Shown one piece after another: positions 29,928 through 36,396 of a DNA stretch of 64,000 nucleotides. Within the stretch, counting starts at the first letter, position 1, and the number at the start of each line of letters is the position of its first letter. The notes beneath the pieces are model-generated. The model was not told the DNA's origin. It did no database searches and saw only the letters and a program-made list of their open reading frames with translations. The position numbers and the translations under genes are program-made. Source of the DNA: Escherichia coli (lineage in GTDB: Bacteria; Pseudomonadota; Gammaproteobacteria; Enterobacterales; Enterobacteriaceae); NCBI RefSeq assembly GCF_030013205.1, contig NZ_CP122648.1; one strand, given 5' to 3'.

Positions 29928-30020
29928 GGTGAGGTGGCCGAGAGGCTGAAGGCGCTCCCCTGCTAAGGGAGTATGCGGTCAAAAGCTGCATCCGGGGTTC
30001 GAATCCCCGCCTCACCGCCA
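29928..30020 (+). tRNA. serV: tRNA-Ser (anticodon GCU)
   Basis: 93 nt; acceptor stem GGTGAGG/CCTCACC, anticodon loop CUGCUAA, long variable arm, CCA end. Confidence 0.9.
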
Positions 30021-30023
30021 TTT

Positions 30024-30100
30024 GCATCCGTAGCTCAGCTGGATAGAGTACTCGGCTACGAACCGAGCGGTCGGAGGTTCGAATCCTCCCGGATGCACCA
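30024..30100 (+). tRNA. argV: tRNA-Arg (anticodon ACG), copy 1
   Basis: 77 nt; GCATCCG/CGGATGC acceptor stem, anticodon loop CUACGAA, CCA end. Confidence 0.9.
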
Positions 30101-30164
30101 TCTCTTACTTGATACAGCTTTAGTAGCGGTATCAAAAAATCTGCAGTAAAGTAAGTTTCCCGAT

Positions 30165-30241
30165 GCATCCGTAGCTCAGCTGGATAGAGTACTCGGCTAC
30201 GAACCGAGCGGTCGGAGGTTCGAATCCTCCCGGATGCACCA
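30165..30241 (+). tRNA. tRNA-Arg (anticodon ACG), copy 2
   Basis: Identical 77-nt sequence. Confidence 0.9.
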
Positions 30242-30376
30242 TATTCTCCGAAATCTTCAGCAATGAAGATATCGAAGAGGTAGCGGAATTAACCGCAGGC
30301 ACCAGGAAGGATAACGTTGCTTTAGCAACGGCCCGAAGGGCGAGCCGCAAGGCGAGTAATCCTCCCGGATGCACCA
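30242..30376 (+). repeat. ~135-nt spacer repeat ending in a degenerate tRNA-Arg 3' fragment (AATCCTCCCGGATGCACCA)
   Basis: Direct repeat of 30517-30649 with scattered substitutions; terminal 19 nt equal the tRNA-Arg T-arm/acceptor 3' end. Confidence 0.7.
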
Positions 30377-30439
30377 TCTCCTAATTGATATGGCTTTAGT
30401 AGCGGTATCAATATCAGCAGTAAAATAAGTTTTCCCGAT

Positions 30440-30516
30440 GCATCCGTAGCTCAGCTGGATAGAGTACTCGGCTACGAACCGAGCGGTCGGAGGTTCGAAT
30501 CCTCCCGGATGCACCA
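30440..30516 (+). tRNA. tRNA-Arg (anticodon ACG), copy 3
   Basis: Identical 77-nt sequence. Confidence 0.9.
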
Positions 30517-33424: not shown

Positions 33425-33497
33425 GAAAAAGGCCACTCGTGAGTGGCCAAAATTTCATCTCTGAATTCAGGGATGATGATAACAAATGCGCGTCTTT
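33425..33497 (-). ncRNA. micA: MicA (SraD) Hfq-dependent sRNA
   Basis: Reverse complement reads GAAAGACGCGCATTTGTTATCATCATCCCTGAATTCAGAGATGAAATTTTGGCCACTCACGAGTGGCCTTTTT, matching remembered MicA incl. terminator hairpin. Confidence 0.85.
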
Positions 33498-33566
33498 CAT
33501 ATACTCAGACTCGCATGGGAAGAAAGAGTTCAGAAAATTTTTAAAAAAATTACCGGAGGTGGCTAA

Positions 33567-34082
33567 ATGCCGTTGTTAGATAGCTTCACAGTCGATCATA
33601 CCCGGATGGAAGCGCCTGCAGTTCGGGTGGCGAAAACAATGAACACCCCGCATGGCGACGCAATCACCGTGTTCGATCTGCGCTTCTGCGTGCCGAACAA
33701 AGAAGTGATGCCAGAAAGAGGGATCCATACCCTGGAGCACCTGTTTGCTGGTTTTATGCGTAACCATCTTAACGGTAATGGTGTAGAGATTATCGATATC
33801 TCGCCAATGGGCTGCCGCACCGGTTTTTATATGAGTCTGATTGGTACGCCAGATGAGCAGCGTGTTGCTGATGCCTGGAAAGCGGCAATGGAAGACGTGC
33901 TGAAAGTGCAGGATCAGAATCAGATCCCGGAACTGAACGTCTACCAGTGTGGCACTTACCAGATGCACTCGTTGCAGGAAGCGCAGGATATTGCGCGTAG
34001 CATTCTGGAACGTGACGTGCGCATCAACAGCAACGAAGAACTGGCGCTGCCGAAAGAGAAGTTGCAGGAACTGCACATCTAG
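33567..34082 (+). CDS. luxS: S-ribosylhomocysteine lyase LuxS
   Basis: 171 aa, HTLEH metal-binding motif. Confidence 0.95.
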
Positions 34083-34139
34083 TCAGTAAACTATCTTCAC
34101 AATTAATTGAAAAAAGCCAGTTCAAATGAACTGGCTTAG

Positions 34140-34820
34140 TTGTGCACAGAAAACCCCCAGCTAGGCTGGGGGTTCCGGAAAGCTTTCAGCTTTGAGCCAG
34201 TTATTAAAACCCCTTTTGATTTGTTAAAACACCTTGCGGTCTGGCAACTGCAAGTGTCAAACAAGAAATCAAAAGGGGGTCCCAATGGGGAACGAAAAGA
34301 GCTTAGCGCACACCCGATGGAACTGTAAATATCACATAGTTTTTGCGCCAAAATACCGAAGACAAGTGTTCTACAGAGAGAAGCGTAGAGCAATAGGCAG
34401 TATTTTGAGAAAGCTGTGTGAGTGGAAAAGCGTACGGATTCTGGAAGCTGAATGCTGTGCAGATCATATCCATATGCTTGTGGAGATCCCGCCCAAAATG
34501 AGCGTATCCGGCTTTATGGGATATCTGAAAGGGAAAAGCAGTCTGATGCTTTACGAGCAGTTTGGTGATTTGAAATTCAAATACAGGAACAGAGAGTTCT
34601 GGTGCAGAGGGTACTACGTCGATACGGTGGGTAAGAACACGGCGAAGATACAGGATTACATAAAGCACCAGCTTGAAGAGGATAAAATGGGAGAGCAGTT
34701 ATCGATTCCCTATCCGGGCAGCCCGTTTACGGGCCGTAAGTAACGAAGTTGGATGCAAATGTCAGATCGTGTGCGCCTGTTAGGGCGCGGCTGGTAAGAG
34801 AGCCTTATAGGCGCATTTGA
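34140..34820 (+). mobile_element. IS200-type insertion sequence (IS200/IS605 family); boundaries approximate (+/-30 nt)
   Basis: Left-end hairpin CCCCCAGC-TAG-GCTGGGGG (34154-34172), RBS-occluding region AAAAGGGGGTCCCAATG, single Y1 transposase ORF; ~0.7 kb. Confidence 0.8.
34285..34743 (+). CDS. tnpA: IS200 TnpA (HUH Y1 transposase)
   Basis: 152 aa from MGNEKSLAHTRWNCKYHIVF; HxH motif (HIHML) and catalytic Y region; near-identical to remembered Salmonella IS200 TnpA. Confidence 0.9.
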   Translation: MGNEKSLAHTRWNCKYHIVFAPKYRRQVFYREKRRAIGSILRKLCEWKSVRILEAECCADHIHMLVEIPPKMSVSGFMGYLKGKSSLMLYEQFGDLKFKYRNREFWCRGYYVDTVGKNTAKIQDYIKHQLEEDKMGEQLSIPYPGSPFTGRK

Positions 34821-34827
34821 AAAACCT

Positions 34828-34846
34828 CCGGCTATGCCGGAGGATA
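34828..34846 (-). terminator. Probable emrB rho-independent terminator (CCTCCGGCATAGCCGGAGG followed by TTTTT on minus strand)
   Basis: GC-rich hairpin plus U-tract immediately after emrB stop. Confidence 0.55.
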
Positions 34847-34857
34847 TTTATTTGTAC

Positions 34858-36396
34858 TTAGTGCGCACCACCTCCGCCGCCACCTGCGCCAAATGGCGGT
34901 TTAGCAAACCACACCAGCCCCAGCAAGACGAGGAATATCCCGGCTGACATCCAGAAGATCTCATTGGCGGAAATAATCAGCCCCTGATTGGTGATCTGCT
35001 GGGCAATCCAGCCTGATGCCTGCTGTTGCGTCATTCCCAGTCCTTCCAGTTGACTGTACATCGCCTGGGCATTCGGGTTGAACGGGTTTACCGACTCGGT
35101 TAACTGTGCGTGGTGCATCGACTCGCGGTTGGTCCACATGGTAGTGGTGATGGATGTGCCGATAGACCCCGCCAGCGTACGCGTAAAGTTGGAGAGGCTC
35201 GATGCCGCCGCCAGTCGTTCCGGTGGCAAACCAGACAGCGTAATGGTGGTCAGCGGCATAAAGAAGCAGGCCACTGCGAAGCCCTGGATAAACTGCGGCC
35301 AGGCCGACGCACCAAAATCCATACCAGGTTCAAAGGTATAGGCACGCCAGTAAAAGCAGACGGCATACATAATAAAGCTGAAGGTTACCAGCCGCCGCAT
35401 ATCCAGTTTATGCGCGAAGCGGCCGATAATCGGCGACAGGATCACCGGAATAATCCCTACCGGCGCAGAGGCCAAACCTGCCCACGTTGCCGTGTAACCG
35501 TAGACCTCCTGCAACAACTGCGGCAGCAGAACAATCGCGCCGAAGTAGAGCATATACGCGAGGCTGATACACAAGCAGCCGATGGTGAAGTTGCGCGACT
35601 TAAACAACGACAGATCGACTATCGGGTTATCGTCGGTCAGCTCCCAGACAATCAGGAAGCAGATAGCCACCACTGCCACCACGGTAAGGATGATAATTTC
35701 CTGTGATGAAAACCAGTCCAGCTCTTTACCGCGGTCGAGCATAATCTGCAGGCTACCGATACCAATAACCAGCAGTGCCAGCCCCACGGCATCAATCCGC
35801 CGCCGTTCGGTGCGGGTTTCACGTCCGCGCAGGGTTTGCAGTGTCATCAACACCACCGCCACGCCAATCGGTACGTTGATGAAGAATATCCAGCCCCAGT
35901 GGTAATTGTCACTGATATACCCGCCGAGGATCGGGCCGCAAATTGGCGCGACAATCACCGTCATCGACCATAACGCCAGCGCGATCGAGCGTTTGGCTGG
36001 CGGGTAGTTATTCAGCAATAGACTTTGCGAAAGCGGAATTAACGGCCCGGCGACAATCCCCTGAATCACGCGGAAGAAGATCAGCATATTCAGGCTGCTG
36101 GAGACACCACACGCCCACGACGCAATAGCAAAGGCGATGGTGGACCAGAGGAACAGTTTCACTTCCCCGACGCGCTTTGCCAGCCAGCCGGTAAGCGGGA
36201 TCGAGATGGCATTCGCCACCCCGAAAGAAGTGATTACCCACGTTCCCTGGCTGAGCGATGAGCCCAGATTCCCGGCGATAGTGGGGATCGCCACGTTAGC
36301 AATGGTGGAGTCCAGCACCTGCATGAATGTCGCCAGTGACAGCGCAATCGTCATAATGACCAGTTGCGCGCCTTCCAGCGGTTTTTGCTGTTGCAT
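34858..36396 (-). CDS. emrB: Multidrug efflux MFS permease EmrB
   Basis: 512 aa from MQQQKPLEGAQLVIMTIAL; 14-TMS DHA2 family. Confidence 0.93.
   Translation of the reverse strand: MQQQKPLEGAQLVIMTIALSLATFMQVLDSTIANVAIPTIAGNLGSSLSQGTWVITSFGVANAISIPLTGWLAKRVGEVKLFLWSTIAFAIASWACGVSSSLNMLIFFRVIQGIVAGPLIPLSQSLLLNNYPPAKRSIALALWSMTVIVAPICGPILGGYISDNYHWGWIFFINVPIGVAVVLMTLQTLRGRETRTERRRIDAVGLALLVIGIGSLQIMLDRGKELDWFSSQEIIILTVVAVVAICFLIVWELTDDNPIVDLSLFKSRNFTIGCLCISLAYMLYFGAIVLLPQLLQEVYGYTATWAGLASAPVGIIPVILSPIIGRFAHKLDMRRLVTFSFIMYAVCFYWRAYTFEPGMDFGASAWPQFIQGFAVACFFMPLTTITLSGLPPERLAAASSLSNFTRTLAGSIGTSITTTMWTNRESMHHAQLTESVNPFNPNAQAMYSQLEGLGMTQQQASGWIAQQITNQGLIISANEIFWMSAGIFLVLLGLVWFAKPPFGAGGGGGGAH

Follow-up and report, generated by a model that had tools for sequence, protein, structure and literature searches.

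An intact IS200C element at the tail of the luxS/emrB terminator in Escherichia coli

IS200 of Salmonella enterica is the prototype of the IS200 group, and IS200C is its Escherichia coli isoform. Experiments have shown the left-end hairpin of IS200 to be a bidirectional terminator (PMC5435999, PMC4513863), which stops ~85% of incoming transcripts in Salmonella (PMC5435999). Ellis et al. showed the structure in the 5'UTR to be a translational block (PMC4513863), and a 90-nt antisense RNA, art200 (formerly STnc490), spans the 5'UTR as well as codons one to three (PMC4513863). The tnpA promoter is weak, three further layers of repression act in addition, and in laboratory work the element is notorious for its inactivity (PMC4513863). 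The mechanism of the IS608/ISDra2 family is a single-strand "peel and paste" transposition (PMC5934647, PMC5027513). In a 2025-26 preprint, an enrichment of terminator-like sequences is reported upstream of insertion sequences (ISs), most strongly upstream of IS200/IS605 (bioRxiv 10.1101/2025.07.22.666184). The closest described system, for the landing place only, is that of group IIC introns, whose insertions follow terminator or attC stem-loops at TTGT/T (PMC7923331); their machinery, a ribozyme with a reverse transcriptase, is unrelated, and they are not HUH transposons.

The window analysed here is a 64,000-nt stretch of the E. coli contig NZ_CP122648.1. Its luxS-emrB spacer was compared with the IS-free junction of K-12 MG1655, where the spacer is only 63 bp long (...AAAAAAGCCAGTTCAAATGAACTGGCTTAGTTGTACTTAgtgcgc...) and the empty site reads ...GGCTTAGT|TGTACTTAG.... 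The window carries a 712-bp insert on the + strand at 34141-34852, or equally at 34140-34851 (TGTGCACAG...GGATATTTATT), with the target GGCTTAGT|TGTAC. The 1-nt ambiguity in register reflects a T that borders both sides. A sequence-only reading had placed an IS200-type element of ~0.7 kb, lacking from K-12, between luxS and emrB at 34140-34850. Its ends lie within two bases of the measured ones, its family assignment is upheld by PF01797, RF01405 and the RefSeq label IS200C, and MG1655 indeed has an empty site. In a K-12 record, a query spanning the junction is matched by its flank half alone, at one place in the whole record. RefSeq labels the gene at the luxS/emrB locus, and at other loci, as "IS200/IS605-like element IS200C family transposase" (WP_000526135.1), and we took the name IS200C from this RefSeq/PGAP annotation as a proxy for the ISfinder reference sequence. 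The feature is thus an intact IS200C of the IS200 group in the IS200/IS605 family, an ordinary element that is already annotated and already known. For the whole account given below, namely an intact IS200C that arrived by peel and paste at a terminator tail, where it forms a nearly neutral insertion and marks a lineage, we estimate a probability of roughly 0.93.

The length of 712 bp is fixed by three clean empty sites in K-12 (luxS/emrB, galU/hns, and fabF/pabC). Adding exactly 712 bp to the empty K-12 sequence gives the occupied site both at galU/hns and at fabF/pabC, where the target is unduplicated. Ten other loci with an identical transposase and one further locus were also used in defining the ends. 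All compared copies share TGTGCACAG...GGAGGATATTTATT, with a T before each copy and divergence past the final TT. The span 1-712 was matched in full at many unrelated loci, with one copy 100% identical. The luxS/emrB locus taken by itself is compatible with five registers, and TTGT stands at both junctions in the window because the IS begins with TGT and the target reads T|TGTAC. We rejected this TTGT as a target duplication, as none is present at the other sites. Registers from GTG onward were ruled out, since the T after ...TATTTATT is missing in some copies. Ends at GCACAG...TATTTA (a 707-bp core), as well as elements of 709 or 711 bp, were overruled by the three clean empty sites. The value of 711 bp came from yfeX/yfeW, where the K-12 spacer is rearranged (a duplicated hairpin around a REP-like insert) and is a poor proxy for an empty site.

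In layout and size class (712 bp here versus 707 bp for Salmonella IS200; PMC4513863), the element resembles the prototype, with a left terminator hairpin at about nt 12-34, a stem-loop hiding the Shine-Dalgarno sequence at about nt 69-138, a single 152-aa TnpA, the art200/STnc490 region, and no inverted repeats. It differs in its host, E. coli, and departs from the Rfam consensus by a few substitutions. Repeat analysis of the element found no terminal inverted repeats joining the two termini. Within the 712 bp, we found no tnpB and no second ORF with a family match.

The left-end subterminal hairpin is located at 34152-34174 on the + strand (AACCCCCAGCtagGCTGGGGGTT), with a perfect 10-bp stem (AACCCCCAGC-tag-GCTGGGGGTT) and the A-tract GAAAA directly 5' of it. 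Its fold is predicted at -18.7 kcal/mol on the + strand and -20.7 on the - strand, and shuffled sequences gave 0 matches to its pattern expected by chance. It corresponds to nt 12-34 of Salmonella IS200 (PMC4513863) and is presumed to be the TnpA-binding hairpin. The stem-loop in the 5'UTR (34210-34278, + strand) corresponds to nt 69-138 (PMC4513863) and folds at -40.4 kcal/mol (z = -3.9), with arms of 16 nt each that are 94% complementary. In this predicted fold, the pairing of CCCCUUUUGAUUU with AAAUCAAAAGGGG would bury the Shine-Dalgarno sequence just upstream of the ATG at 34285. The Rfam family RF01405 (STnc490, the IS200 left-end/5'UTR family) matched in full length at 34152-34275, with 146.4 bits where the gathering score is 56. 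The model matches the tnpA-sense strand and therefore marks the region, not the strand, of art200. Placed solely by homology, the antisense RNA would lie at approximately 34204-34293 on the - strand.

The gene tnpA (34285-34743, + strand) encodes an intact Y1 (HUH) transposase of 152 aa, which matched PF01797 (Y1_Tnp) over residues 11-129 of 152 (E = 3.8e-38). The catalytic residues are in place (H61-I-H63, Y125, and Q129). The protein matched TnpA structures from Sulfolobus, IS608, and ISDra2 in the PDB (2ec2, 2f4f, 2a6m, 2vhg, and 2xm3), and its HUH, Tyr, and Gln positions align with those of 2ec2 and 2f4f. The sequence-only reading had named the left-end hairpin, an RBS-occluding structure, and a single 152-aa Y1 transposase as the hallmarks of the element, and all three proved correct, the ORF being undisrupted. 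An identical TnpA protein is encoded at many other loci. Among 11 copies, all differences within the ORF fall at third codon positions and all are synonymous, from which we conclude that TnpA, judged from sequence comparison, is under purifying selection.

The right-end subterminal hairpin (CCTCCGGctatgCCGGAGG = CCTCCGGCtatGCCGGAGG; stem CCTCCGGC-tat-GCCGGAGG) lies at 34825-34843 and is terminator-like on both strands. It is preceded by GAAAAA and followed by ATATTTATT, after which the IS ends. The folds are predicted at -15.9 kcal/mol on the + strand and -15.5 on the - strand, and the terminator scan flagged both. The right and left hairpins repeat each other in direct orientation with 78% identity over 23 nt, and GAAAA precedes each of them. 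On the minus strand, the right-end hairpin reads CCUCCGGCAUAGCCGGAGG-UUUUUCAAAU, with UUUUUCAAAU as its tail. The 8-mer TTGAAAAA occurs directly 5' of both the native luxS/emrB terminator and the right-end hairpin. Though suggestive of right-end mimicry, it was given no weight, such a match being within chance for an 800-bp region.

Both neighbouring genes are intact. The luxS gene (33567-34082, + strand; PF02664, E = 1.6e-59) lies upstream of tnpA in the same orientation, with MicA (33427-33498, - strand; Rfam) in its normal place upstream of luxS. The coding sequence of the convergent emrB (34858-36396, - strand; MFS_1 in Pfam) is complete, and its stop codon at 34858-34860 and the IS end are 5 nt apart. 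The spacer has a single host terminator, the native bidirectional hairpin at 34114-34137, which acts for both strands, is identical in K-12, and folds at -15.8 kcal/mol (+) and -15.3 kcal/mol (-). The terminator scan flagged this hairpin on the emrB (minus) strand, with the tail TTTTCAATTA, and left it unflagged on the luxS strand, where the tail TTAGTTGT is weak. On the emrB strand, the hairpin ends in ...GGCUU and runs into UUUUCAAUUA, giving AAGCCAGUUCAUUUGAACUGGCUU-UUUUCAAUUA with the tail UUUUUUCAAUUA.

The insertion point lies 3 nt (counting from the full stem) to 5 nt (from the GC core) downstream of the native hairpin on the luxS-sense strand. The earlier placement of the element in the convergent luxS/emrB terminator region therefore holds, whereas its description as wedged between two terminators does not, as there is one bidirectional hairpin. 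What had been taken for the emrB terminator is the right-end hairpin of IS200C, which is also found with the element at unrelated loci. As a caution for annotation, the hairpin adjoining emrB should be read as the element's own and not as a host terminator.

luxS retains its hairpin along with 8 nt at the start of the tail, unchanged from K-12, and emrB is cut off from the native terminator, with the right-end hairpin now 14 nt past its stop codon. On the minus strand, the right-end hairpin is predicted to be close to the native emrB terminator in stability and in its U-tract. The retained luxS hairpin, the equivalent emrB hairpin, and a weak and repressed tnpA together lead us to predict little transcriptional effect on either neighbour. 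Read-through from luxS would meet the left-end hairpin, and termination of emrB would pass to the right-end hairpin.

The sequence-only reading had proposed that read-through or antisense transcription from the element could affect the 3' ends of luxS and emrB. An IS200C acting chiefly as such a regulator of its neighbours would find some footing in the anatomy: 5 nt separate the IS from the stop codon of emrB, the emrB 3'UTR and terminator have been displaced, and the weak, unflagged U-tract on the luxS-sense strand makes a degree of luxS read-through into the IS plausible. Stable sRNAs are produced in Salmonella from transcripts entering IS200 left ends (PMC2515195). We nevertheless regard this role as very unlikely. 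The K-12-like hairpin and tail of luxS, the close match, by predicted folds, of the minus-strand right hairpin to the terminator that emrB lost, the arrest of ~85% of incoming transcripts by the IS200 left hairpin, which works in both directions (PMC5435999), and the intrinsically weak tnpA promoter (PMC4513863) all speak against it. The anatomy lends no support to disturbed 3' ends, and the insertion is probably nearly neutral and harmless.

A megablast search of 5,426 complete E. coli genomes recovered the same luxS-IS200C-emrB arrangement, with all three genes annotated by RefSeq. Near-full-length IS200C copies are present in ~2063 of the 5426 genomes, at up to 35 places per genome and roughly 9,400 chromosomal places in total. 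The junction-spanning query was fully covered in 19/5426 genomes only (CFSAN018748, K_EC180, O139:H1 strains, a porcine ETEC series, and MS 69-1). These carriers are mostly porcine ETEC/O139:H1, and RefSeq already annotates IS200C there. The luxS/emrB insertion accordingly marks one lineage, and it is useful at most as a marker for this mostly porcine E. coli group.

Lineages with the luxS/emrB insertion carry 19-35 copies of IS200C per genome. This number bears on the alternative that the copy is an immobile, domesticated relic retained for its RNAs (a 5'tnpA-derived sRNA and art200). IS200 has been described as apparently immobile, with a 5'tnpA RNA that controls virulence regulons in Salmonella (bioRxiv 10.1101/2024.06.26.600842; PMC5435999); the high conservation of the 5'UTR region (146 bits in Rfam) would agree with retention of this kind. 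We find it unlikely, given the copy number, the purifying selection on tnpA seen as purely synonymous third-position changes among 11 copies, and the activity that Salmonella TnpA shows in E. coli when freed from translational repression (PMC4513863). Moreover, the insertion is polymorphic within E. coli (19/5426), so transposition must have occurred within the history of the species.

The TnpA proteins of IS608 (H. pylori) and ISDra2 are homologous to that of IS200C (2a6m and 2vhg, E ~4e-19; 2xm3, E ~2e-16). The likeness extends to directly repeated subterminal hairpins with a short sequence 5' of each in the guide position, and to a lagging-strand bias and the lack of target duplication on insertion, which probably takes place 3' of a short target. 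IS608 has a tnpB and the target TTAC, in contrast to IS200C, which has no tnpB and T-rich TTTnT flanks beside a hairpin. By analogy with IS608 and ISDra2, IS200C would have arrived by single-strand peel and paste. TnpA would bind the subterminal hairpins, the short guide 5' of each hairpin would pair with the cleavage sites, and the top strand would be excised as a circle. The circle would then be inserted into the lagging-strand template, 3' of a short, T-rich stretch, the target being recognised through pairing with the A-tract guide beside the left hairpin. The guide-target pairing and the cleavage positions of IS200C are likewise modelled on IS608/ISDra2.

Several features of the element and its sites are compatible with this scheme. 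GAAAA occupies both guide positions, and T-rich sequence is found in the right-end cleavage region (TTTATT) as well as in the left flanks (TTTnT). A terminal T and a T-rich composition are common to the left flanks of all 11 E. coli copies, whose consensus TTTnT| is degenerate; the flank of the window copy, TTAGT|, is the least T-rich among the 11 sites (cleavage register +/-1 nt). These A-tract guides and T-rich cleavage and target regions fit the pairing rule, without amounting to proof.

All eight IS200C sites that could be mapped on K-12 (8/8) are co-directional with replication, the replichores being assigned from the positions of oriC and ter in K-12. In the left replichore they lie on the minus strand (luxS, yfeX, and uhpT) and in the right replichore on the plus strand (galU, kdsA, fabF, pheP, and yccU), and in the window the GC skew is positive on the tnpA strand. 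The co-directionality would place the top strand of IS200C on the lagging-strand template; it is confounded, in that the upstream genes are co-oriented with the IS and are themselves mostly co-directional with replication. A preference for the lagging strand would explain why the poor luxS-sense T-tract was used and not the better one on the emrB strand.

The setting at luxS/emrB recurs elsewhere in the species. Each of 11 independent E. coli IS200C sites (11/11) lies 3-8 nt past a GC-rich hairpin with a T-rich tail. The upstream hairpin differs at each of the 11 sites and is the intrinsic terminator of a co-oriented upstream gene, and most of the sites lie between convergent genes. We considered these upstream hairpins as part of the element and rejected this, as they are different at each site and match the K-12 empty site where one is available.

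An exact search for the 17-mer of the left hairpin, with one genome per species, returned at least 120 stretches. The matches listed include Yersinia pestis (IS1541), Vibrio ruber, Brenneria, Edwardsiella, Oxalobacter, Mailhella/Desulfovibrio, Peptococcaceae, a Bacillota MAG, and others. IS1541 of Y. pestis/pseudotuberculosis shares with IS200C the left-hairpin 17-mer, the GAAAAC guide position, the right-end hairpin, and the site behind terminators; their left termini differ (TGTGCCCAG in IS1541 versus TGTGCACAG in IS200C).

Among the matches listed, a strict terminator-like hairpin with a T-tract ends just before the element in 78 of the 94 unique left flanks, and the remaining 16 mostly have imperfect hairpins. 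In a random control, 42 of 5,000 positions in the same loci passed the strict test (0.84%). Six lineages with different left termini show a common GAAAAC guide position and T-rich flank profile. The position behind terminators suggests target choice: the survival of harmless insertions would not account for a placement within a few nucleotides on a fixed strand.

This placement has to be weighed against survival without targeting, whereby IS200 would insert widely and its copies would persist only in harmless, silent spots. An insertion does the least harm in a spacer between convergent genes, and a preprint takes the terminators enriched upstream of ISs for a setting that restricts transposase expression and favours persistence (bioRxiv 10.1101/2025.07.22.666184). 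Selection of this kind would not, however, fix an insertion 0-8 nt past the hairpin, on the T-tract strand, and in the orientation of the upstream gene. The pattern is present at 11/11 E. coli sites and at 78/94 listed sites across phyla, against 0.84% of random positions, and the TTTnT| flank consensus is kept across lineages that share the GAAAA guide position. IS copies in Y. pestis expanded recently under weak selection. All IS1541 flanks retrieved from this species show the pattern, and we judge survival by itself to be quite unlikely as the explanation.

In the mechanism that we propose for target choice, the conserved GAAAA guide beside the left hairpin would pair with the T-tract of the terminator, with help from the adjacent GC hairpin. 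This hairpin may keep the T-tract accessible in single-stranded DNA, or it may occupy a hairpin-binding site of TnpA. The proposed set of terminator-choosing elements would comprise IS200C, IS1541, and their relatives in Vibrio, Desulfovibrionaceae, Bacillota, Oxalobacter, and others. The literature searched, outside of which lie the older IS200/IS1541 papers and ISfinder, contains no explicit statement of terminator targeting by IS200; the preprint on terminator enrichment upstream of ISs comes nearest. Terminator targeting may already be on record, and we do not claim novelty. That the IS200 group targets terminators by hairpin-assisted pairing of the guide with the T-tract, and that this is at the same time undescribed, is a joint proposition that we hold tentatively and consider more doubtful than probable.

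If the IS200 group does target terminators, it and group IIC introns would have converged on a "safe-harbour" strategy, and it would be the second independent case, after these introns, of mobile DNA using terminators as safe sites. Such targeting would also explain the harmlessness and persistence of the group, and the guide-DNA targeting rule known from IS608 would then cover a structured target as well.

The right end of IS200C is itself laid out like an intrinsic terminator, with an A-tract, a GC hairpin, and a T-rich tail. Among the matches listed, some Y. pestis copies lie directly behind the right end of another copy, in line with this resemblance; such head-to-tail copies occur for IS1541 in Y. 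pestis, and the window has none.

At all 11 E. coli sites, namely the one in the window and the other loci carrying IS200C copies (L005–L012, L014, L002), we observed an intrinsic-terminator hairpin with its T-tract, followed a few nucleotides 3′ by the IS200-group element in the same orientation. The same terminator-then-element arrangement recurred across phyla in 78 of the 94 unique flanks of IS200-group elements among the matches listed from an exact search for the left-hairpin 17-mer (L015–L134), while 0.84% of random positions, used as the control, showed it. In the yfeW/yfeX spacer of K-12 (L004, 2407–2647), the yfeX terminator hairpin is present in two copies bracketing a REP-like insert of ~150 bp, and in strain WCHEC96200 a single yfeX hairpin is followed by IS200C. 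Thus, one terminator has been struck by two kinds of repeat element.

The 8-mer TTGAAAAA was found both directly 5′ of the native luxS/emrB terminator hairpin (34107–34114) and directly 5′ of the IS right-end hairpin (34817–34824). Additionally, the minus-strand tail of both hairpins reads UUUU(U)CAA. This resemblance between the native terminator and the IS right end may be a chance occurrence within 800 bp. The right end also contains a second, imperfect inverted repeat just upstream of its hairpin (34772–34815; TGCGCCTGTTAGG / CCTTATAGGCGCA), with 13-nt arms that are 85% complementary. At the opposite end of the element, it is the tnpA-sense strand that matches the Rfam model RF01405 (STnc490), and the match (34152–34275) takes in the left-end hairpin; art200, the namesake RNA of this model, is antisense to the 5′UTR (PMC4513863, PMC2515195).

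Among the matches listed (L015–L134), exact copies of the left-hairpin 17-mer CCCCAGCTAGGCTGGGG occurred in Proteobacteria, Desulfobacterota, Bacillota, Saccharibacteria, and Elusimicrobia MAGs, frequently at the ends of contigs. Its presence in very distant phyla implies either that the TnpA-binding hairpin is strongly constrained or that it has spread widely by horizontal transfer. We also detected other arrangements of the hairpin. In Yersinia pestis NCTC5923 (L120, L121, L123), IS1541 copies form head-to-tail junctions, …GGAGGATATTTAT|TGTGCCCAG…, in which one copy has inserted directly 3′ of the right-end hairpin of another, and the junctions are 1 nt shorter than a plain end-to-end join. 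In a distinct group of elements, the hairpin with the 17-mer is found at the apparent right end, CCCCAGCTAGGCTGGGGGATGCTTATT, followed by variable flanks (L100–L103, L106–L108, L034, L035, L076, L095); the members from a Ruminococcus MAG (L100–L103, L106–L108) share a conserved sequence upstream of this hairpin. Furthermore, a lone left-type hairpin in Dickeya undicola (L094, ~position 700), which no transposase adjoins, has a palindrome extending on both sides of it (GTCTATAGAAAAC-hairpin-GTTTTCTATAGAC) and may represent a miniature or remnant element.

In comparison with strain CFSAN018748, the window showed five mismatches over 6.8 kb, four of which fall within IS200C (34365, 34512, 34593, and 34626), all at synonymous third-codon positions. 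Strain K_EC180 has, at another locus, a copy that is 100% identical to the one in the window. This clustering, together with the identical copy elsewhere, suggests that IS200C copies exchange sequence by gene conversion.

Elsewhere in the window, the tRNA cluster at 29928–30516 comprises Ser(GCT) and three identical Arg(ACG) genes, the last preceded by a 198-nt gap. K-12 presumably has four Arg copies at this location, and the gene number may therefore differ between the two. The MicA sRNA (33427–33498, minus strand), which lies between gshA and luxS as usual, gave a full-length Rfam match of 83.9 bits.
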